Shown here: positions 11,635 to 57,080 of the stretch, piece after piece | How the letters are laid out: each line of letters starts with the position of its first letter | Numbering within the stretch: position 1 is the stretch's first letter | DNA from: an uncultured Clostridia bacterium | GTDB lineage: Bacteria > Bacillota > Clostridia > TANB77 > CAG-508 | Direction: 5' to 3' | Assembly (NCBI GenBank): GCA_963558405.1 | Contig: CAUWGC010000004.1 | Span: 26,395-90,394 of the forward strand | Length of the DNA stretch: 64,000 bases | Program-made: the position numbers and the translations under genes | Notes under the pieces: generated by a model | What the model was told of the DNA's origin: nothing | The model's input: only the letters and a program-made list of their open reading frames with translations | The model's database searches: none

Positions 11635-11710
11635 GCGGGAATAGCTCAGTTGATAGAGCGCTGCCTTGCCAAGGCAGAGGTCGCGGGTTTGAGCCCCGTT
11701 TCCCGCTCCA
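11635..11710 (+). tRNA. tRNA-Gly (anticodon GCC)
   Basis: Cloverleaf folded by hand. Acceptor gcgggaa/ttcccgc, D arm gctc/gagc, anticodon stem ctgcc/ggcag with loop ttGCCaa, T arm gcggg/cccgt. CCA is encoded. Confidence 0.93.
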
Positions 11711-11727: not shown

Positions 11728-11801
11728 GGCGCTATAGCCAAGTGGTAAGGCACGAGTCTGCAAAACTCTGATCCCCGGTTCAAATCCGGGTGGCGCCTCC
11801 A
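11728..11801 (+). tRNA. tRNA-Cys (anticodon GCA)
   Basis: Acceptor ggcgcta/tggcgcc (one G-U pair). Anticodon loop ctGCAaa. T loop ggttcaaatcc. CCA is encoded. Confidence 0.9.
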
Positions 11802-12137: not shown

Positions 12138-12429
12138 TTGTACGAGTAACACCTCCTTTCTAGCTTATTGCCGAAAGGCTATTTTAATATACAATATATT
12201 TACAGATTATTCAATAAAATTTAAAAGTTTTTCAGTATTTATTTTAAATATCTTATATCACGTTGCAGTAAAATTGCAATAAATTTAAACAGTAGACGTT
12301 CGAAACTATACAGAAATATATTTACATAATTATTTAAATATGTTAAAATATAAAAGTAAAATTTTTTTATTCTCCATTTTACAACAGGAGTTTACTATAA
12401 ATAAAAATTTATTTTGGGAGGAAAGTCTT

Positions 12430-12873
12430 ATGAAAGTAATTTTAATTATTCTCATTGTGTTGGTGTTTATCTATTTATTAGTTTCCTTTTGGGTAAAAGG
12501 AAATAATTTGGGAAGATTATACATTTTCCGGGATTGTGCAATAAGTGCAATACAAATAACAAATATAATGTTAGATCTAATCAAAGAAGACGATATAGAA
12601 AAGAGCATTTTGGAATTTTCTTCAAATCTAGAAATCTATATTGAAAATGAAGAAGAATTTGCAATGTTCAGAACTGAGAAACATGTTTTGATAATAGAAA
12701 AACCTATAAACAAAAAAATTATTTTAAATCAATTAGAGATTATAATTAATGAATCATTAAAAGATTTTGAATATATAGATTCATTAATTTATGCCGATAA
12801 TGAGTTACGTACTTTAAAAAGAGAACTAGTGGACACATTAAACAAAGTGAGAGTAACAAGGTGGCAATTATAA
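12430..12873 (+). CDS. hypothetical membrane-anchored protein
   Basis: RBS gggagga precedes ATG 12430. An N-terminal TM helix is followed by a soluble domain. No motif recognised. Confidence 0.45.
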   Translation: MKVILIILIVLVFIYLLVSFWVKGNNLGRLYIFRDCAISAIQITNIMLDLIKEDDIEKSILEFSSNLEIYIENEEEFAMFRTEKHVLIIEKPINKKIILNQLEIIINESLKDFEYIDSLIYADNELRTLKRELVDTLNKVRVTRWQL

Positions 12874-12886
12874 GATGAAATAAAAT

Positions 12887-12930
12887 AAAAGTAAAGATAT
12901 TCTTAAAATGAATTTCTTTACTTTTATTTT
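12887..12930 (+). terminator. rho-independent terminator
   Basis: 16-bp stem (aaaagtaaagatattc / gaatttctttactttt, one mismatch) followed by atttt. Confidence 0.55.
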
Positions 12931-13123
12931 AAGTTTATAGGAAAAAGTCTTAGGGAAATACGTTAAAAACATATAATTTTACATAATAGATTGAAAAAAA
13001 CGCAAAAATGTAATATAATTGTAATGTAAGGTGTTTTTTGCATATTGCAACTTGTAAAATCTATTTCCGTAAAGGAAAGGAAAACACCTAAAAATCAATG
13101 AAAAAAACTAGAAAAAAATGTTA

Positions 13124-13152
13124 TTGACTTCTAAAAAAAAAAATACTAAAAT
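13124..13152 (+). promoter_or_regulatory. sigma-A type promoter of the DUF11 surface-protein gene (TTGACT-17-TAAAAT)
   Basis: -35 at 13124-13129, a 17-nt spacer, and -10 at 13147-13152. The ATG is about 35 nt downstream with RBS gggaggaaagg. Confidence 0.5.
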
Positions 13153-13186
13153 AAGAAATAATATAGTATGGGAGGAAAGGATTCAT

Positions 13187-16100
13187 ATGAAAAAAATAAG
13201 AAAATCATTTTTAAGTATAATTATAATAACATTATTCCTTCTTCTTTTCACAGGAATAACACAAAGCTATGCAGCAATAGCAAACCCACCAAAAAGATTT
13301 GGTGTTATTAGTGTAAGACCAAATGCGGGTTATGGTTATTTAGTAAGTGGAAATGATAAGGTATGGAAAATAGTAGAATACAACGATGCAAGCAGTAATC
13401 CAGCAGTAATAGATTATAGTAGAACAATATATTGTTTAAAACAAGGATTAGGGTTTGGATCAGGAGGAATAAGACCATTACCAGAATATTATGATACATA
13501 TTTTGATATGAAAAAAGAATATGGAACAATGCCATCAAACTATAAGTCAATGTTACCACAAAGCTATAATGAAGTATTATGGCTATTAGATAATATATAT
13601 GTAGCAGATGGAACAGAGTCAAGTAAACATGAAAGAGAAGCATTACTTGCAAAAGTATTTAAGGATGATTTAGAAGATACAGAACTATATCCACCATTTA
13701 CAATGGAAGATATAGTATTAACAGATGATGACATGGATGTAGTGCAACAGTTAGCAGTATGGTACTTTACAAATCCAGAAAATGATTATTTAAAAAATGA
13801 TGTAAATTTATTCATAAGTTCAAACGAAATGGCACAACCAAATGAATTTAAAATACTTTCTGACCGAGAATTTGATGATGAAAATGGATATATAAGATTA
13901 GAGCAAGCAAATAAATATTTTAATTATTTAAAAGAGCAAGCAAAATTAAATGCATCAAATTATGGAAGTGGAGATATAAGAGAAGATAATAGAAGACCAA
14001 TAGAACTATCAAAAAATGGAATTACAGTAAAAGAAGAAAATGGAAAGTATATAATAGGGCCATATAAAATAGAAAAAGTAACAGAAGCAGATTATACATT
14101 AAATGCAAAATTTAAAAAAGGGACAGAATCAGGAGAAGACTTTACAAATTATACATTATTAGATAAAGAACAAAAACCAACATCAAAAACAATAAATGAG
14201 CTAGTAGGAGAAAACTTTTATATATCAGTACCAACAACAGAAGAATTAGAGACATTAGTATTTACAATAGATGTAGAATACTATGTAAGAGAATTACAAT
14301 ATTGGACAGTAGGAGATGCACCATCAACAAATCAACCAATAGTAATAGTAAAAAGAATAAAGAAAAACTATTCAGACTCAGTATCAGTAACAATAAAACA
14401 ACCAGAAAAGAATTTTGATATATCATTAAGAAAATTCATAACAACAGTAAATGATAAAGAACTAAAAGATGGACAGTCAAGATATTTAAGAGAACCAATA
14501 GTAGATATAAGTAAATTAAATACAATAGTAGATGGAAGATTAATAACAACAGCAGAATATAATCATCCAAAGACACCAGTATCAGTAAAAGCAGGAGATA
14601 CAGTAGTATATACAATAAGAGTATATAACGAAGGAGAAGTAAATGGATATGCAAATGAAATAACAGACTATTTACCACCAGAGTTAGAATTCTTACCAGA
14701 TGATCCATTAAATAAACAATATGGATGGACATTAGATACAAATGATCTTTCTAACAGAACAGTAAAAACAAATTACTTATCAAAAGAAACAGAAGAAGTA
14801 CCAGGAGAACATATTTTAAAAGCTTTTACAGGAAGTAATGATAGAGCTATACTTGAATTAGACTATAAAGATGTACAAATAAAATGTAAAGTTAAAAGTG
14901 TAAGTGAAGTCAACAAAAAAATAACAAATATAGCAGAAATAACAGAATATAAAGACGAAAGTGGAAACATAGCAACAGATCGAGATTCTACTCAAGATAA
15001 TGTTATAAGACCTTCAGATAGTGATTTACCAAATTATAAAGATAATGAAATAAACAGTGGAAAGCCATATATTCCAGGACAAGAAGATGACGATGATTTT
15101 GAAAAATTAGTAATGCAAAGATTTGATATATCATTAAGAAAATTTATAACATCAGTAAATAATGAAGAATTGTTAAAAGAAGATGGAAGCTATATACGTG
15201 AACCAATAGTTGATGTAACTCCATTAAAAGAAGGAACAGGGACAACAGCAATATATAAACATACAAAAATACCAGTAGAAGTAAAAGTAGGAGATATAGT
15301 AGTATATACAATAAGAGTATATAATGAAGGAGAAGTATCAGGGTATGCAAATGAAATAATAGATCATTTACCACCAGAACTAGAATTTTTACCAAATGAT
15401 GAATTAAATAAAGAGTATGGATGGGAATTGGATGCAAGTGATCCATCAAATAGGACAATAAAAACAAAATATTTATCATATGAAACAAATCAAAAAGATA
15501 ATTTAATAGATGCATATAATAAAGACACAATGCAAACATTAGATTATAAAGAAGTAAAAGTAAAGTGTGTAGTAAAAACAACACAAGAAACAGGTAAAAA
15601 AATAACAAATATAGCAGAAATAACAGAATATAAAGATGAAAGTGGAAACATAGCAACAGATGTAGATTCAGACGCAGGAAATGTAGTATTACCAACAGAT
15701 GAAAATTTACCAAAATACAAAGATGATGAAATAAATAGTGGAAAAGAATACATACCAGGTCAAGAAGATGATGATGATTTTGAAAAATTAGTAATGAAGA
15801 AATTTGATTTATCATTAAGAAAATTTATTACATCTGTAAATGGTAAAGAATTAATAGATGAAAATGGTAAATATATACGTGAACCAATAGTTGATGTGAC
15901 TCCATTAAAAGAGGGAACAGGAACAACAGCTATATATAATCATACAAAGGTACCAGTAGGAGTTAAATCAGGAGATATTGTAATATACACAATAAGGGTA
16001 TACAACGAAGGACAGGTATCAGGATATGCAAATGAAATAGTAGATCATTTACCACCAGAACTTGAATTTATTATTAATGATGATTTAAATGCAAGTTATG

Positions 16101-18343
16101 GATGGAAATTAGATCCAAATGATGAATCTTTAAGAACAATTCGCACAAGCATTTTATCTTATGAATATGATGAAGAAGATAATCTAATTTCAGGATTTGA
16201 TAAAGATAATATGGAAACTTTAGATTATAAAGAAATTAAAGTAAAATGTAAGGTAAAAGATGTACAAGAAACTGGAAAGAAAATAACAAATATTGCAGAT
16301 ATTACAGAGTATAAAGATGAAACAGGAAATATTGCAATTGATGTTGATTCAGAATCTGTAAATGTAAAATTGCCATCAGATGAAGAACTTCCAAATTACA
16401 AAGATGATGAAATAAATAGTGGAAAAGACTATATTCCAGGACAAGAAGATGACGATGATTTTGAAAAACTAAAAATGCAACAATTTGATTTAGCATTAAG
16501 AAAATTTATTACTAAAGTAAATGATGGAGATGTAACATCAAGAATACCAGTAGTAGATGCAAGTAAGTTATATACATATGTAGACGGAAAATTAGTAACA
16601 ACTGCTACATATATACATCCAAAAGATCCAATTTTAGTTTCAAGTGGAGATACTGTGGTATATACAATAAGAGTATATAATGAAGGCGACATTGCAGGAT
16701 ATGTTAAAGAAGTAATGGATGATATTCCAGAAGGATTATTGTTCTTACCAGAAAATGATACAAATAAAGAATATCGTTGGAAAATGATAAAAGAAGATGG
16801 AACTGAAACAGATAAACCAGAAGAAGCTGTAAAAATAGTAACTGACTATTTATCAAAAGAACAAGAAAAAAATCCAGGAGAAAATTTAATACCAGGATTT
16901 GATAAATCTACTATGACAGAACCAGCATATAAAGACGTAAAAGTAGCATTTAAAGTAACAGAACCAAATTCTTCTGATAGAATTATTATTAATACAGCAG
17001 AAATCACTGATGATACAGATGAAAATGGAAACCCAGTAGAAGATATAGATTCTACACCAGATAATAATGTTCCAGAAGAAGATGATATTGATATTGAAAA
17101 AATAAAAGTTGTTGAATTTGATTTAGCATTAAGAAAATTCATAACAGGAGTAAATGACAAAGAAATAACAGATAGAGTACCACAAGTAAACATAGCAGAA
17201 GATGGAACAATATCATATTTACATACTAAAGAACCAGTAGAAGTAGTAAATGGAAATTTAGTAACATATACATTACGTGTATATAATGAAGGAACAATGA
17301 ATGGATATGCAAAAGAAATAAAAGATGATATACCAGAAGGACTAGAATTTATACCAGATAATGAAACAAATAAAGAGTATCGTTGGAAAATGTTAGGAGA
17401 AGATGGAAAAACAGAGGTAACAGATGTAAAAGAAGCAAAATATGTAGTAACAGATTATCTATCAAAAGAACAAGAAAAAGTAGACGGAGAAAATCTAATA
17501 CCAGCATTTGATAAAACAACAATGAAAGAGCCAGCATATAAAGATGTAAAGGTAATATTTAAAGTAGTAGAACCAAATACATCAGATAGAATAGTAATAA
17601 ATACAGCAGAGATATCAGATGATTCAGATGAAGATGGAAATGATGTAGTAGATAAAGATTCAGTTCCAGATAATAACAAACCAGAAGAAGATGATATAGA
17701 TATAGAAAAAGTAAAAGTAAAATACTTTGACTTAGCGCTAAAGAAATGGGTAACACAAGCAATAGTAATAGAAGATGGGAAATCAACAATAACAGAGACA
17801 GGACATACAGGAGAAGAAAACCCAGAGCCAATAGTAAAAGTAGATTTACATAGAAAAGACATAAATAAAGTAACAGTAAAATTCAAATACAAAATAAAAG
17901 TAACAAACGAAGGAGAAATAGAAGGCTATGTAAAAGAGATAACAGACCATATACCAGAAGGATTAAAATTTGTAAAAGAAGATAATCCAAAATGGGTACA
18001 AAAAGATGAAAAGACAATAACAACAGATCAATTAAAAGATACATTATTAAAACCAGGAGAAAGTGCAACAGTAGAAGTAGTGCTAACATGGATAAATGAT
18101 GGAGACAATATGGGAGTAAAAGTAAACATAGCAGAAATAAGTAAGGATTATAACGATAGTCATACACCAGATATAGATTCAACTCCAGGAAATGAAGTAC
18201 CAGGAGAAGATGACATAGATGATGCACCAGTTATGTTAACAGTTGCAGCAGGTGAAGTACCAAGTTATATAGGATTTGGAACAATAATAGTTGTAATGTT
18301 AGCAGGAGGAATATTCTTAATAAAAAAATATGTATTTGAATAA
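13187..18343 (+). CDS. giant cell-surface protein with tandem DUF11 ('conserved repeat domain', TIGR01451-like) repeats, signal peptide and C-terminal TM anchor
   Basis: Signal peptide MKKIRKSFLSIIIITLFLLLFTGITQSYAA. Six repeats of FD(I/L)(S/A)LRKFIT...G(D)xVxYTIRVYNEG.V.GYA.EI.D.LP.ELEF. The C-terminal hydrophobic segment is followed by KKYVFE. There is no LPXTG motif. The track ORF start at 13118 lacks an RBS. Confidence 0.75.
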   Translation: MKKIRKSFLSIIIITLFLLLFTGITQSYAAIANPPKRFGVISVRPNAGYGYLVSGNDKVWKIVEYNDASSNPAVIDYSRTIYCLKQGLGFGSGGIRPLPEYYDTYFDMKKEYGTMPSNYKSMLPQSYNEVLWLLDNIYVADGTESSKHEREALLAKVFKDDLEDTELYPPFTMEDIVLTDDDMDVVQQLAVWYFTNPENDYLKNDVNLFISSNEMAQPNEFKILSDREFDDENGYIRLEQANKYFNYLKEQAKLNASNYGSGDIREDNRRPIELSKNGITVKEENGKYIIGPYKIEKVTEADYTLNAKFKKGTESGEDFTNYTLLDKEQKPTSKTINELVGENFYISVPTTEELETLVFTIDVEYYVRELQYWTVGDAPSTNQPIVIVKRIKKNYSDSVSVTIKQPEKNFDISLRKFITTVNDKELKDGQSRYLREPIVDISKLNTIVDGRLITTAEYNHPKTPVSVKAGDTVVYTIRVYNEGEVNGYANEITDYLPPELEFLPDDPLNKQYGWTLDTNDLSNRTVKTNYLSKETEEVPGEHILKAFTGSNDRAILELDYKDVQIKCKVKSVSEVNKKITNIAEITEYKDESGNIATDRDSTQDNVIRPSDSDLPNYKDNEINSGKPYIPGQEDDDDFEKLVMQRFDISLRKFITSVNNEELLKEDGSYIREPIVDVTPLKEGTGTTAIYKHTKIPVEVKVGDIVVYTIRVYNEGEVSGYANEIIDHLPPELEFLPNDELNKEYGWELDASDPSNRTIKTKYLSYETNQKDNLIDAYNKDTMQTLDYKEVKVKCVVKTTQETGKKITNIAEITEYKDESGNIATDVDSDAGNVVLPTDENLPKYKDDEINSGKEYIPGQEDDDDFEKLVMKKFDLSLRKFITSVNGKELIDENGKYIREPIVDVTPLKEGTGTTAIYNHTKVPVGVKSGDIVIYTIRVYNEGQVSGYANEIVDHLPPELEFIINDDLNASYGWKLDPNDESLRTIRTSILSYEYDEEDNLISGFDKDNMETLDYKEIKVKCKVKDVQETGKKITNIADITEYKDETGNIAIDVDSESVNVKLPSDEELPNYKDDEINSGKDYIPGQEDDDDFEKLKMQQFDLALRKFITKVNDGDVTSRIPVVDASKLYTYVDGKLVTTATYIHPKDPILVSSGDTVVYTIRVYNEGDIAGYVKEVMDDIPEGLLFLPENDTNKEYRWKMIKEDGTETDKPEEAVKIVTDYLSKEQEKNPGENLIPGFDKSTMTEPAYKDVKVAFKVTEPNSSDRIIINTAEITDDTDENGNPVEDIDSTPDNNVPEEDDIDIEKIKVVEFDLALRKFITGVNDKEITDRVPQVNIAEDGTISYLHTKEPVEVVNGNLVTYTLRVYNEGTMNGYAKEIKDDIPEGLEFIPDNETNKEYRWKMLGEDGKTEVTDVKEAKYVVTDYLSKEQEKVDGENLIPAFDKTTMKEPAYKDVKVIFKVVEPNTSDRIVINTAEISDDSDEDGNDVVDKDSVPDNNKPEEDDIDIEKVKVKYFDLALKKWVTQAIVIEDGKSTITETGHTGEENPEPIVKVDLHRKDINKVTVKFKYKIKVTNEGEIEGYVKEITDHIPEGLKFVKEDNPKWVQKDEKTITTDQLKDTLLKPGESATVEVVLTWINDGDNMGVKVNIAEISKDYNDSHTPDIDSTPGNEVPGEDDIDDAPVMLTVAAGEVPSYIGFGTIIVVMLAGGIFLIKKYVFE
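14414..17725 (+). repeat. five in-frame tandem repeat units (708, 681, 681, 633, 609 nt) inside the surface-protein gene; a sixth divergent unit begins at 17726
   Basis: Unit starts at 14414, 15122, 15803, 16484, 17117 and 17726 were located by the recurring FD(I/L)(S/A)LRKFIT motif. Units 1-3 and units 4-5 form two subtypes. Confidence 0.75.
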
Positions 18344-18353
18344 AAAATAAAAA

Positions 18354-18382
18354 AGTAGATAATTTTGATTATCTACTTTTTA
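18354..18382 (+). terminator. rho-independent terminator of the surface-protein gene
   Basis: Stem agtagataat/attatctact with loop tttg, followed by ttttt. Confidence 0.7.
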
Positions 18383-18418
18383 TTGTATAGGAAAAATCGA
18401 AGATTTTGAGTATACAAC
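18383..18418 (+). repeat. copy A of a ~36-nt structured motif (ttgtata-gg-aaaaatcga-ag-a-tttga-g-tatacaa)
   Basis: Shares ttattgtataggaaaaa..tcga..ag..tttga.tatacaac with 47119-47156. The 7-nt arms ttgtata / tatacaa are inverted. Confidence 0.6.
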
Positions 18419-18613
18419 AAGGTTAGATTACCTTAGACTGTCCGAGCAAAGCGAGTGACATGTATTTTGCAGTTACTTCAGAGACATTCTTAGCAAAATA
18501 CCTTTCTTATAAAATTAATAAAAAGTTAAATTTTATAACTTAAAATAATTATTTACATTCTATATGTAATATGATATAATTCCTAATATCTGGAATAGAG
18601 AGGTGTAAAACAA

Positions 18614-19531
18614 ATGAACCAAATACTAAACACAGGTAAAAAGAAAAAAGAGCCAGCAGGAATAAAATCAATTGTGTTATTTTTTAGTATTTCTATATTT
18701 ATATTTGGAAGCATTTTAATAGGACATAGTTCATATTCAATGTATCAATATCAAAAAGAACAAGAAGAACTAAGAAGAAAAGATGTACTTGCGTTAAATA
18801 TTACTAGAGACGGAAAAATGCTTACTTTACATGTTAAAAATGAAAATACTATTGATAAAGTTGTATATAATTGGAATAATACAGAAGACCATATTTTATT
18901 AGGAAAAGGTAGAAATGAGTTTTCAGAGGAAATAGAACTTCCATTAGGAACTAATGTATTAAATGTAAAAATATCAGATGTTACAGGAAAAAGTAAAAAT
19001 TATCAAAAAGAGTATATTCTTGAAGAAGGAGATATTACAGGTCCAGAAATAGAACTTGTAGTAGTTGGTGATAAAGTTAAAATTGTAGCAAGAGATGATG
19101 CAAGATTGTCTTATATTACTTATCGTTGGAATGAAGAACAAGAAACAACAATAAATCCAAGACCAGAGTCACCAGCATTAATAGAAACAGAAATTGATAT
19201 AAAGAAAGGATTAAATACACTTACTGTAATAGCAGTGGATGATCATAATAATACAGAAGAAAAGAAACAGGATTTTGAAGGTGTTACAAAACCAAAATTA
19301 GAGTTAACAAAAGAAGGAAATTATTTAGTTATAAAAGCAACAGATGAAGATGATGGATTAGATAGAGTTGAATATACAATTAATGATCAAAAATATTTAA
19401 TTCCATTAAAACATGGAGAAAAGACAGTAACATATAAACAAGAATTAAAATCAGGGGATAATCCATTTACTATTGATGTATATAATAAAAATGGAGATGT
19501 CACAAATCAATATGGAACTTGTCCAAATTAA
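18614..19531 (+). CDS. hypothetical membrane-anchored protein with beta-rich (Ig-like) extracellular repeats
   Basis: RBS gagaggtg. An N-terminal TM helix. Repeated ~90-aa segments with a D/T-rich pattern. Confidence 0.4.
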   Translation: MNQILNTGKKKKEPAGIKSIVLFFSISIFIFGSILIGHSSYSMYQYQKEQEELRRKDVLALNITRDGKMLTLHVKNENTIDKVVYNWNNTEDHILLGKGRNEFSEEIELPLGTNVLNVKISDVTGKSKNYQKEYILEEGDITGPEIELVVVGDKVKIVARDDARLSYITYRWNEEQETTINPRPESPALIETEIDIKKGLNTLTVIAVDDHNNTEEKKQDFEGVTKPKLELTKEGNYLVIKATDEDDGLDRVEYTINDQKYLIPLKHGEKTVTYKQELKSGDNPFTIDVYNKNGDVTNQYGTCPN

Positions 19532-25736: not shown

Positions 25737-26459
25737 ATGAATGAAATATATGAAAAAATATCAGCTCAATTACCAATAAAATACAAAGAGTCTATATTTA
25801 AATATATAGCTGAACTGAAGGATAATTTGGGGGATGTTTTAAAATTAGTTTTATTAATAGGTAGCAGCTCTAGTGGACATGTTGTAGAAGGTTGGAGTGA
25901 TATAGATACTATATTAGTCTTAGAAAATTATAAAATAGAATATATAAATATAATAAAAAAAATTGTACAAAAATATGATATAAAGATAGGAAATACGATA
26001 TACAGTAAAAAGGAATTTGAAAATAAAAGAATAAATCCTAAAACTTATTATTATTTATTATTAGTACAAGAAAATTACATAAAAATACAGTATAATTCAT
26101 CTGATTTATATATACCAAAAGTTACCATAAAAGAATGTCAAGACCAGTATATGACATGGTTGATGGAGCATTTTCATTCATATAAAAGAATGTGGCTATA
26201 TCAAGAAATTTCAGAAGAGAGAATAAGAGAAATATTTAAAAATACATATTTGATTATGAAGGCGATTTTAATAATTAATAATTATCGTCCTCAAAATTAT
26301 GAACAAGTATTCAAGCTATATTCGGAAAAATTTAATTATAAGAAATTTAATTATAAAAAATTTATAGAAGGATATCAAAAGAAAGAATACGACAAAGAGG
26401 AAATAATTAATTTTGGAAAGGAGTTTAGTGAAGAAATTTCAAATAATTTAAAAGTATAG
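25737..26459 (+). CDS. Pol-beta-superfamily nucleotidyltransferase (ANT/Lnu-like minimal NTase)
   Basis: GSSSSGHVVEGWSDIDTILVL = GS-x9-DxD nucleotidyltransferase motif. Confidence 0.55.
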   Translation: MNEIYEKISAQLPIKYKESIFKYIAELKDNLGDVLKLVLLIGSSSSGHVVEGWSDIDTILVLENYKIEYINIIKKIVQKYDIKIGNTIYSKKEFENKRINPKTYYYLLLVQENYIKIQYNSSDLYIPKVTIKECQDQYMTWLMEHFHSYKRMWLYQEISEERIREIFKNTYLIMKAILIINNYRPQNYEQVFKLYSEKFNYKKFNYKKFIEGYQKKEYDKEEIINFGKEFSEEISNNLKV

Positions 26460-55907: not shown

Positions 55908-55915
55908 ATAAATTT

Positions 55916-55945
55916 CTAGGGTAAAATAATATTTTACCCTAGAAT
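55916..55945 (+). terminator. hairpin, possible terminator (weak U-tract)
   Basis: Long stem ctagggtaaa/tttaccctag. Confidence 0.35.
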
Positions 55946-55961
55946 AAAAGTAGGTGATGAG

Positions 55962-57080
55962 ATGGGAAAAAGAAATAAAAAAGCTTCAGATGTGGACTTA
56001 TATTATTTAGGACAAGCAGAAGAAAAAAATAAGAAAGAACAAAAAAGGGATAAAAAGAAAATAGAAAACAAAAAAAATAAAAAATCCCCTAAAAAAGATA
56101 TAAAAGAAAAAAAATCATCAAATAAATTAGAAGAAGCATATAATTTTGAGGAAGAAATTGTAATTGGAATTCCTATAAATAATAAGGAAAAGCAAGAAAA
56201 ATCAAATAAGAAAGAAAAAAAGAAAAACAACCATAGTAACAAAAATAACGAGACAAAAAAGAGAAAAAAAGAAAATAAAACTAGTAAACAAACAAATAAA
56301 ACAAATAAAACTAAAAAATTAATTCCTAAACAAGAAAAAGCCTTAAAAAAGAAAAAAATAATATTAGCTATTTTGAAATGGTTAATTTTATTAATGCTTT
56401 TAGCAGGTTCTATTACATATCTTTTATTATCCCCACTATTTAATATTATTAATGTAGATGTAACGGGAAATAGTAAAATTAGTATAGAACAAATCAAAAG
56501 CCTGTCACAAATACAAATAGGTGAAAATATTTTTAAAATCAAGAAGAAAGAAGTTATAAACAATATAAAGGAAAATCCATATATAGATTCAGTTATAGTA
56601 TCTAGAAAATTACCTAATACCATAGATATAAAAGTAGAAGAAAGAACAGCTACACTTCAATTACAATATGCAAATAGTTATGTGTATTTAAATAATCAAG
56701 GATATATGTTAGAAATAAGTGACAAAAAGTTAGAAAATGCTCCTATTTTAAAAGGAATTTCAACAAAACAGGAGAATATAAAAGAAGGAAATCGTTTAGA
56801 AAGTGAAGATTTAGAAAAATTAGAGATAGTACTTAGTGTATTAGAATCAGCTAAAAGTAATGATGTTTATCAAAATATTAAACAAATAGATATTAAAGAA
56901 AAGAATGATTTTATACTATATTTAGACGAAGACAAAAAAATAGTATATTTTGGAGATGAAAAAGACTTAAGTACCAAAATGCTATGGATAAAAACAATGT
57001 TAGAAAGAGAAAAAGATATAGAAGGAGAACTGTTCTTAAATAAAGGAATGGACTCTGTATATTTTAGAGAAAAAGTATAA
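55962..57080 (+). CDS. divIB: cell division protein DivIB/FtsQ
   Basis: K-rich cytoplasmic tail, one TM, and a POTRA domain (VTGNSKISIEQIK...NPYIDSVIVSRKLPNTIDIKVEER). Confidence 0.8.
   Translation: MGKRNKKASDVDLYYLGQAEEKNKKEQKRDKKKIENKKNKKSPKKDIKEKKSSNKLEEAYNFEEEIVIGIPINNKEKQEKSNKKEKKKNNHSNKNNETKKRKKENKTSKQTNKTNKTKKLIPKQEKALKKKKIILAILKWLILLMLLAGSITYLLLSPLFNIINVDVTGNSKISIEQIKSLSQIQIGENIFKIKKKEVINNIKENPYIDSVIVSRKLPNTIDIKVEERTATLQLQYANSYVYLNNQGYMLEISDKKLENAPILKGISTKQENIKEGNRLESEDLEKLEIVLSVLESAKSNDVYQNIKQIDIKEKNDFILYLDEDKKIVYFGDEKDLSTKMLWIKTMLEREKDIEGELFLNKGMDSVYFREKV

Follow-up and report, generated by a model that had tools for sequence, protein, structure and literature searches.

Behind the two largest envelope genes of an uncultured Clostridia bacterium stands the same hairpin-forming sequence, and the question that this raises is whether the repeat serves those genes or came there for another reason. 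Both copies lie in the window, by which we mean the whole 64,000-nt stretch of DNA analysed here (positions 26,395 to 90,394 of contig CAUWGC010000004.1, assembly GCA_963558405.1). The initial annotation took the recurrence as a sign of function and offered three options: a regulatory RNA element of the 3′-untranslated region (3′-UTR) or a small RNA (sRNA), a protein-binding site, or a REP-like repeat. We find that the repeated hairpin, named H1, is a scattered extragenic palindrome of mobile-element origin, and that its most likely role is that of a site recognised by a transposase, as the oriIS of an IS91-family element. Of the three options the repeat and the protein-binding site thus came closest, while an RNA tied to the envelope genes did not hold. 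The position behind these two genes is incidental and does not point to a function particular to the adhesin or the glucan-synthase gene. We give a probability of about 0.8 to the full account, in which H1 is the oriIS end of miniature IS91-type elements that are mobilised in trans by rolling-circle transposition and choose targets that mimic their own terIS.

The repeat is readily distinguished from chance. The 17-mer TTATTGTATAGGAAAAA has exactly two matches in the window, at 18380-18396 and 47117-47133, both on the + strand, where none is expected, and 0 of 100 dinucleotide-preserving shuffles of the window contained any match. In both copies H1 folds into an outer stem, TTGTATA/TATACAA, around an inner stem, AAAATC/GATTTT (fold z-scores on the + strand of -3.4 and -2.4), so the pairing of the 7-nt arms noticed earlier is borne out and extended inward. 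As had also been noticed, both copies lie directly 3′ of a long AT-rich hairpin with a T-tail, which itself comes right after a gene stop. Copy 1 follows the gene of a DUF11/TED adhesin (13118-18343), whose intrinsic terminator (GTAGATAAT-tttg-ATTATCTAC plus T-tail, 18355-18382, + strand) belongs to the host, as judged from its fold and from a homologous terminator at an element-free locus (L153). Copy 2 follows a gene for a GH94 glucan-synthase-like protein of 2735 aa (38845-47052) and the terminator-like host hairpin behind it (47060-47119, + strand, with pairs spanning 47060-47115 and the tail CCTTTCTTA). Both hairpins lie outside the element. The roughly 15 nt of upstream similarity that had been counted as part of the motif is not part of it: the T-run ending in TTA is an insertion-target consensus described below, and the two terminator stems, which are unrelated, have the short AT-rich ATTATCT in common by coincidence.

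The motif had been sized at about 60 nt, with a 36-nt core. For copy 1 this is too short, as H1 makes up the first 35 nt of a 127-nt unit at 18383-18509 on the + strand. H1 itself (TTGTATAGGAAAAATC-GAA-GATTTTGAGTATACAA, 18383-18417, + strand) is oriIS-like and of the same class as the hairpin found 3′ of IS91-family transposase genes; its boundary-proximal arm is intact, and the distal arm carries a GG/GAG internal loop. The unit continues through a CAAGGTTAGATTACCTTAGAC core, which places it in the 'CCGAGCAAAGCGAG' subfamily of what we call type A, to a terIS-like end at 18462-18509 (+ strand), where a hairpin GTATTTTGC...GCAAAATAC (18462-18470 / 18493-18501) is followed by CTTTCTTA, an architecture that full-length elements and the other miniature families also have at this end. 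The unit closes with the tetranucleotide CTTA (18506-18509, + strand), and on the other side the inferred target tetranucleotide, TTTA (18379-18382, + strand), abuts the element. A covariance model built solely from units of other genomes gives copy 1 a score of 53.3 bits (E 1.6e-8), and copy 1 aligns end to end with the units at loci L017, L052, L082, L097, L123 and L127; beyond 18509 the sequence is unrelated among the insertions. Having H1 at one end and the hairpin with CTTTCTTA at the other, copy 1 can be regarded, on the strength of its sequence, as a complete, gene-less and non-autonomous miniature IS91-type element.

Related genomes show the same locus without the unit. The spacer between the adhesin gene and the next gene measures 270 nt in the window and 141 nt at the orthologous locus L153 (84% protein identity), a difference of 129 nt for a unit of 127 nt. 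L153 has kept the homologous terminator (ATAGATAG...CTATCTAT TTTTTG) and the downstream promoter and lacks the unit, and at L154, the locus of a 62% orthologue, the unit is absent as well. Among conspecific metagenome contigs (20), all carry the elements, with both copies at the same spacing, and the unit of copy 1 is identical in six of them. Three short conspecific contigs begin inside this unit (at window positions 18389, 18462 and 18484) and one begins 14 nt after it, which is expected for a multi-copy repeat.

A scan of one-genome-per-species bacterial contigs for the pattern TTGTATAGGAAA-N14-24-TATACAA recovered at least 120 loci. Among the matches listed, nearly all come from assemblies of gut Clostridia, Lachnospiraceae, Blautia, Roseburia and Ruminococcus, often with several loci per genome. 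One cultured carrier is Roseburia hominis An869, with H1 at L055 and L062. The initial annotation had allowed for the outcome that only two copies exist, with no structural covariation; what was found instead are numerous copies across genomes, with compensatory changes. It had also asked whether copies track gene ends, and here the answer is divided, as they follow terminators and not gene function: H1 stands behind the terminators of unrelated genes at more than 100 other Clostridia loci, and no signal is left in the fact that two copies follow envelope genes.

The flanks of these copies show what H1 is part of. Among the matches listed, 119 of 131 instances are palindromic and the remainder look like chance. 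In 73 of the 119, one flank belongs to a sequence family and the other is unique, which identifies H1 as a shared terminus rather than a free-standing motif; another 33 have a family flank on neither side and could be solo hairpins. At least nine distinct cargo families occur at H1, in units of 105-190 nt. In type-A units (40 instances among the matches listed), H1 is followed by CAAGGTTAAGTT.CCTT and further conserved sequence, and the unit ends 105-133 nt from the start of H1 with a GC-rich hairpin and CTTTTCTTA (terminus GTGGC-GAA-GCCAC TTTT CTTA), beyond which the flanks are unrelated. Seven other cargo families, aligned over 150-190 nt, finish with an end hairpin, TTT(T) and GTTC, the exceptions being two members of family 1 (TTTG and CTTA), and in several of their units another H1 directly follows. 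Such tandem arrangements recur: three identical 105-nt units stand in a row in L100 and two units in each of L034, L017 and L022, and ter|ori junctions are found in tandem in L100, L034, L017, L022, L079, L172, L178, L053 and L045. The L100 array, with a 36-nt palindromic repeat and a 105-nt period, was also considered as a CRISPR array and rejected, as its 69-nt 'spacers' are identical to one another and homologous to those of other genomes. As a separate observation, an H1 variant with a 24-nt loop insert (TTGTATAGGAAAAATC GACTTTTATCTTGACTTTATACAA GATTTTTCCTATACAA) recurs in several genomes (L025 2023-2085; L109 130-190 and 6048-6110; L122 7253-7315).

Clustering all open reading frames (ORFs) of the H1 loci (1245 ORFs among the matches listed) gave no protein that is generally adjacent to H1, and the downstream and other neighbouring genes are unrelated. 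One small cluster is an IS91-family transposase: its member at L057 matches Zn_Tnp_IS91 (PF14319, 4e-21) and Y2_Tnp (PF04986, 2.8e-32), and in a BLASTP comparison the clostridial transposase is 30% identical to the TnpA of Escherichia coli IS91 (E 5e-45), with the motifs WHPHIH and VRYYG aligned. At L057, L074 and L001, H1 is the last conserved sequence 3′ of the transposase gene and a 74-aa ORF. About 100 nt 5′ of the transposase gene in the same three loci lies GGCACTAA...TTAGTGCC; next comes GTGAAAC-loop-GTTTCAC, and after it TTTT GTTC or TTTT CTTG.

The link does not depend on the H1 pattern. In an independent scan, metagenome contigs were searched with the transposase protein alone, and this gave 22 loci. 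An H1-like palindrome lies 287-302 nt after the transposase stop in every copy in which a palindrome was found and the transposase match is full-length (22 loci), and next to the outer edge of these transposase-linked H1 copies comes (C/T/G)AA(A/G)AAA. Their arms vary in a compensatory way, as in TTGAATA/TATTCAA and TTATATA/TATATAA; in their alignment 97.7% of cells are paired, at two pairs both partners have changed, and the covariation score was reached by 1 of 500 shuffles. At the upstream end of the full-length elements (L057, L074, L157-L178), some 100 nt ahead of the ATG, stands a hairpin with a T-run and GTTC, CTTG, TTTG or TTTA. Full-length examples, GTGAAC-GAAG-GTTCAC TTTT GTTC and GTGAAC-TTCG-GTTCAC TTTT with GTTC or CTTG, can be set beside the miniature terminus GTGGC-GAA-GCCAC TTTT CTTA. 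The transposase family is abundant in metagenomes: a threshold of E <= 1e-40 gives 2762 clusters, and most of these are on contigs 1.4-2.5 kb long. A conserved ORF of 74 aa with two CxxC pairs starts 4 nt after the transposase stop (L001 298-522, + strand; L074 5110-5331, - strand; L057 218-424, - strand; in part at L031 715-786); its copies are 75-89% identical to one another, and Pfam gives no match.

The boundary of H1 also carries the signature of known IS91-type origins. Read in the orientation of the transposase, the H1 boundary arm is GATTTTTCCTATACAA and contains TTCCTATAC, and the reverse complement of H1 in copy 1 contains TTTTTCCTATACAA, with TTCCTATAC in common with the oriIS of ISCR1 and ISCR27. 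The published oriIS sequences are GTGGTTTATACTTCCTATACCC for ISCR1 and GCGGTTGAACTTCCTATACC for ISCR27, the latter 236 bp after the stop codon, and an E. coli IS91 copy has AAATTCCTATCGAT at the place equivalent to the H1 boundary arm. On an E. coli plasmid (L182, NZ_CP122637.1, 2903-3180), canonical IS91 copies stand in tandem. The ori end of one (…AAATTCCTATCGAT) directly meets CGAG and the GC-rich palindrome at the ter end of its neighbour, and the clostridial arrays have ori|ter junctions of this kind too.

In the IS91 family, insertion makes no target duplication, and next to oriIS stands CTTG or GTTC, a tetranucleotide with a conserved T in second place (PMC13181058). At oriIS, downstream of tnpA, there are one or two subterminal palindromes; terIS, upstream of tnpA, has a single palindrome beside its cleavage tetranucleotide, and transposition still occurs when oriIS is reduced to 82 bp and terIS to 89 bp (PMC13181058). 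The clostridial elements resemble the IS91 family (IS91, IS801 and IS1294) and the ISCR elements in the two transposase domains and the WHPHIH and VRYYG motifs, in an oriIS palindrome with TTCCTATAC a few hundred bp downstream of tnpA, in a terIS palindrome with GTTC or CTTG upstream of it, in the absence of inverted terminal repeats and target duplications, and in a target tetranucleotide with T at positions 2-3 abutting oriIS. By these sequence-level features, the full-length clostridial elements can be assigned to the IS91 family. They also differ from it in several respects. The protein is only 30-35% identical to any plasmid-borne member, and the hosts here are gut Clostridia as opposed to Proteobacteria. 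The clostridial target takes in a T-run behind a stem-loop, as in intrinsic terminators, and its commonest tetranucleotide is TTTA instead of CTTG or GTTC. The 74-aa CxxC ORF lies downstream of the transposase gene, whereas the canonical orf121 lies upstream of tnpA. Many gene-less miniature families occur in Clostridia.

A competing explanation would make H1 a REP-type palindrome of a Y1 transposase (IS200/IS605-like, RAYT), or an independent palindrome that IS91-like elements and small units merely use as a target. H1 is indeed a short, multi-copy extragenic palindrome usually found near terminators, 33 of its 119 instances, as mentioned above, have no family flank, and copy 2 has no clear cargo. 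However, no Y1 transposase family occurs among the 1245 ORFs of the at least 120 loci, the only transposase repeatedly beside H1, among the matches listed and in the independent scan alike, is of the IS91 Y2 type, and H1 carries the IS91/ISCR oriIS core. A mere target would have host sequence on both sides, and yet in the 73 instances with one family flank, one side is always cargo and the other always a T-run and unique sequence. We consider this explanation improbable. REP/BIME sequences with RAYT, and the PATEs of IS200/IS605, do share with the clostridial units a dispersed extragenic palindrome, an HUH transposase that recognises DNA hairpins, and insertion without duplication beside a short specific sequence, often near terminators; they differ in that their enzyme is of the single-tyrosine Y1 type and the hairpins of their two ends are alike, where the clostridial units go with a Y2 enzyme of IS91 type and have unlike ends. 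Membership in either group was also considered in its own right and rejected, with no Y1 protein found among these ORFs, a Y2 protein linked, and two ends that differ in sequence.

If H1 is the end of an element, the sequence just outside it is the target. We profiled this side in 76 H1 copies, taken from the matches listed and oriented by their cargo side, hence independently of the T-run. Position -3 is T in 76 of 76 and position -2 in 74 of 76; position -1 is A in 56, G in 14 and C in 6, and never T; positions -7 to -5 are T in 66-69 of 76. The commonest flanking tetranucleotides are TTTA (43), TTTG (10), CTTA (9), CTTG (4) and GTTC (3). The median folding energy of the 46 nt upstream of H1 is -11 kcal/mol, against -2.9 kcal/mol in segments drawn at random from these loci (p = 7e-22), and ORFs ending or starting within 300 nt upstream are co-oriented with H1 in 35 cases and opposed in 17, on crude ORF calls. 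There is no target duplication: the NTT(A/G/C) of the 5′ flank, present in 74 of the 76 oriented copies, does not recur in the 3′ flank, whose sequence is unrelated. The stem-loop and T-run upstream place the elements after intrinsic terminators or after the ter ends of resident copies (L079, L172, L178). The target resembles the element's own terIS, and this preference for terminator tails suggests that the transposase recognises both alike, as a terIS and its look-alike, which would explain the tandem arrays.

The sequences show what the units are and how they are built. How they would move and choose their targets is the less certain part of the account, and for these steps we rely on analogy with IS91, IS801 and IS1294. 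A Y2 HUH transposase supplied in trans would nick the + strand between NTT(A/G/C) and the first T of H1 (predicted site TTTA|TTGTATAGG or TTTTTTA|TTGTATAGGAAAAATCGAAGATTTTTCCTATACAA), and the nicked strand would be displaced by rolling-circle replication. A second cut would follow the terminal tetranucleotide at the terIS hairpin (predicted site GTGGCGAAGCCACTTTTCTTA|N), and the displaced strand would be rejoined 3′ of a similar site elsewhere. Preferred sites would be those that look like the element's own terIS, that is, a stem-loop, a T-run and NTTN, so that insertions would land behind intrinsic terminators and resident copies and build tandem arrays. The absence of the unit at L153 and L154, the identical tandem copies, the ter|ori junctions and the assembly breaks within the unit may be read as indirect signs of such rolling-circle mobilisation.

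Several points weigh against this account. No transposase gene was found in the 64-kb window, and a trans-acting partner elsewhere in the source genome has to be assumed. Beyond H1 and the general shape of terIS, the miniature cores have no sequence similarity to the interior of the full-length elements, and derivation by deletion is therefore conjectural. Neither window locus shows recent movement, as every conspecific contig carries both copies, and at L153 the flanks have diverged too far to define an empty site to the base. In copy 2, no terIS end can be recognised. The bacterial scan selected loci on the H1 pattern, so its copy numbers and taxonomic range are lower bounds. Finally, the conserved, covarying hairpins (H3) and the terminator-like 3′ end would fit an RNA too.

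This last point is the core of a second explanation, in which the unit is a structured RNA, either a 3′-UTR element or an sRNA gene, acting on the stability, processing or regulation of the envelope gene or on targets in trans. The location is 3′-UTR-like, the unit has several hairpins with compensatory changes in H3 as well as H1, its 3′ end with hairpin and T-run looks like a terminator, and tandem arrays are reminiscent of multi-copy sRNA genes; on its reverse strand, where G-U pairs can form, H1 has a slightly better fold. Against these stand the absence of any matching Rfam family, even at E values up to 10, and of any sigma-70-like promoter inside the unit, which lies behind the upstream gene's own terminator. 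An RNA also leaves unexplained why H1 is common to at least nine unrelated cargo families and to full-length transposons, at a fixed distance from the transposase gene, why the neighbouring genes are unrelated, and why a close relative lacks the unit at the orthologous locus. The covariation itself is equally expected of single-stranded DNA hairpins recognised by HUH enzymes. We regard an RNA as unlikely, though as the least unlikely of the rival explanations. In permissive Rfam scans of both regions (including window 18300-18650) and of L034, only sub-threshold chance matches were seen. Two simpler roles in transcription were tried for H1 and rejected: as a promoter, its TTGTAT...TATACA has a spacing of 22 nt and the unit holds no consensus promoter, and as an intrinsic terminator, it is in the wrong order, since on both strands the T-run precedes the hairpin and the A-run follows it.

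A third explanation looks downstream. In both window copies H1 lies 128-231 nt before the start of the next gene, and could be an operator, a site for a host transcription factor controlling the operon of a 305-aa Ig-like protein behind copy 1 and the WalR-like two-component system behind copy 2; a palindrome with conserved half-sites at this distance from a gene start would suit that role. But the downstream promoters are kept in relatives that lack H1, the distance and orientation to downstream genes vary and those genes are unrelated across loci, and a dimeric operator would not need the self-complementary and covarying hairpin centre. An operator is therefore very hard to sustain, and H1 as an oriIS remains our reading.

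Copy 2 shows how little of an element may be left. Its H1 (TTGTATAGGAAAAAATCGACAGACTTTGATTATACAA, 47120-47156, + strand, from fold and model match) is a truncated or solo oriIS end, with the inferred target tetranucleotide CTTA at 47116-47119 (+ strand, from the target profile). At 47164-47171, TTAAGTTT resembles the type-A core and stands at the type-A offset. In the covariance-model match, copy 2 runs over 47120-47204 (23 bits, E 0.018) and ends in TGTATTCTTA; this was rejected as the 3′ end, as ACTTGTATTCTTA...TGATATTAT is the promoter of the response-regulator gene. In a relative (L180/L179) whose response regulator is 94% identical and which has no H1, ACTTGTATTCTTA...TGATATTAT is conserved, and any further element sequence in copy 2 must therefore end before about 47190, at most some 35 nt past H1. 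Either the truncation of a unit or a one-ended event that yielded a very short product would thus account for copy 2. The A-run in its H1 (47131-47136) is A6 in the window and in eight conspecific contigs and A5, the family consensus, in L146 and L151, a within-species polymorphism of homopolymer length. The promoter of the WalR/VicR-like response-regulator gene is of the extended -10 type (47194-47222; TTGTAT, 17 nt, TGA-TATTAT); a relative in which another gene lies upstream has kept it, and the synteny with the GH94 gene is species-specific.

One-ended products have a precedent. IS801 of Pseudomonas syringae yields miniature pieces of 229, 360 and 679 nt that are mobilised by the transposase in trans (PMC3189936). 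Like the clostridial units, these pieces are short and gene-less, keep the ori (right) end and finish at a ter-like tetranucleotide; unlike them, they are contiguous IS801 fragments at low copy number, without a far-end palindrome (PMC3189936). The clostridial units, in contrast, measure 105-190 nt, have cores unrelated to the parent interior and a terIS-like hairpin of their own, and form at least nine numerous families with tandem arrays and a preference for terminator tails. A likeness of plan to Helitrons and Helentrons can also be drawn. Non-autonomous Helitrons and Helentrons are gene-less rolling-circle elements that have only the termini in common with an autonomous partner, with a 3′ subterminal hairpin, no target duplication and a tendency to form tandem arrays; they differ in being eukaryotic, with a Rep/helicase protein, an A|T target and other terminal motifs. 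A literature search for the H1 sequence returned only an unrelated plant paper, and where clostridial IS91 miniatures or targeting of terminators were sought, the IS801 work alone came up. No description of the clostridial units was thus found, which is no proof of absence, as ISfinder was not covered.

A broader proposal, to which we give even odds, is that gut Clostridia host an undescribed superfamily of miniature IS91-type elements, in which at least nine cargo families share one oriIS hairpin, home to intrinsic terminators by terIS-mimic targeting, bring a replacement terminator along and form tandem arrays. If true, this would be a new mode of target selection for Y2 HUH transposases and would provide a natural minimal substrate of 105 nt. 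IS91 and ISCR elements capture and spread resistance genes, and their end requirements and target choice are poorly defined. A natural set of 105-190-nt units, in which only the oriIS hairpin and the terIS hairpin with its tetranucleotide are kept, delimits the sequences that the transposase needs. Where genes are convergent or in tandem, an insertion places further hairpins and a second terminator between them, which could alter read-through. In annotation, the units should be masked as mobile-element repeats and not called as sRNAs or 3′-UTR motifs, and they break metagenome assemblies.

A pattern scan of viral contigs gave three convincing H1 relatives, one of them a perfect palindrome with 22-bp arms and a compensated inner stem. 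In an IMG/VR contig classed as viral (L010, 4400-4900), a perfect-palindrome H1 and its cargo lie between two tRNA genes, and L001, which is also classed as viral, holds an IS91-like element; such elements thus reside on phage or prophage DNA as well. In a plasmid collection, no match to the 127-nt unit was found.

Elsewhere in the window, Rfam 15 at its gathering threshold reported only two tRNAs, whose genes are adjacent on the + strand (11635-11707 and 11728-11798). Searches with the model and the pattern found no further convincing H1 copy in the window, and a model match at 55914-56005 was rejected as an ordinary terminator palindrome. After the terminator of the ORF at 12340-12873 (...CTTTACTTTTATTTTA), at 12926-12960, the sequence AGTTTATAGGAAAAAGTCTTAGGG resembles the H1 boundary arm with 3 mismatches and is without a matching second arm; it may be a decayed element end or half-site just upstream of the adhesin gene.

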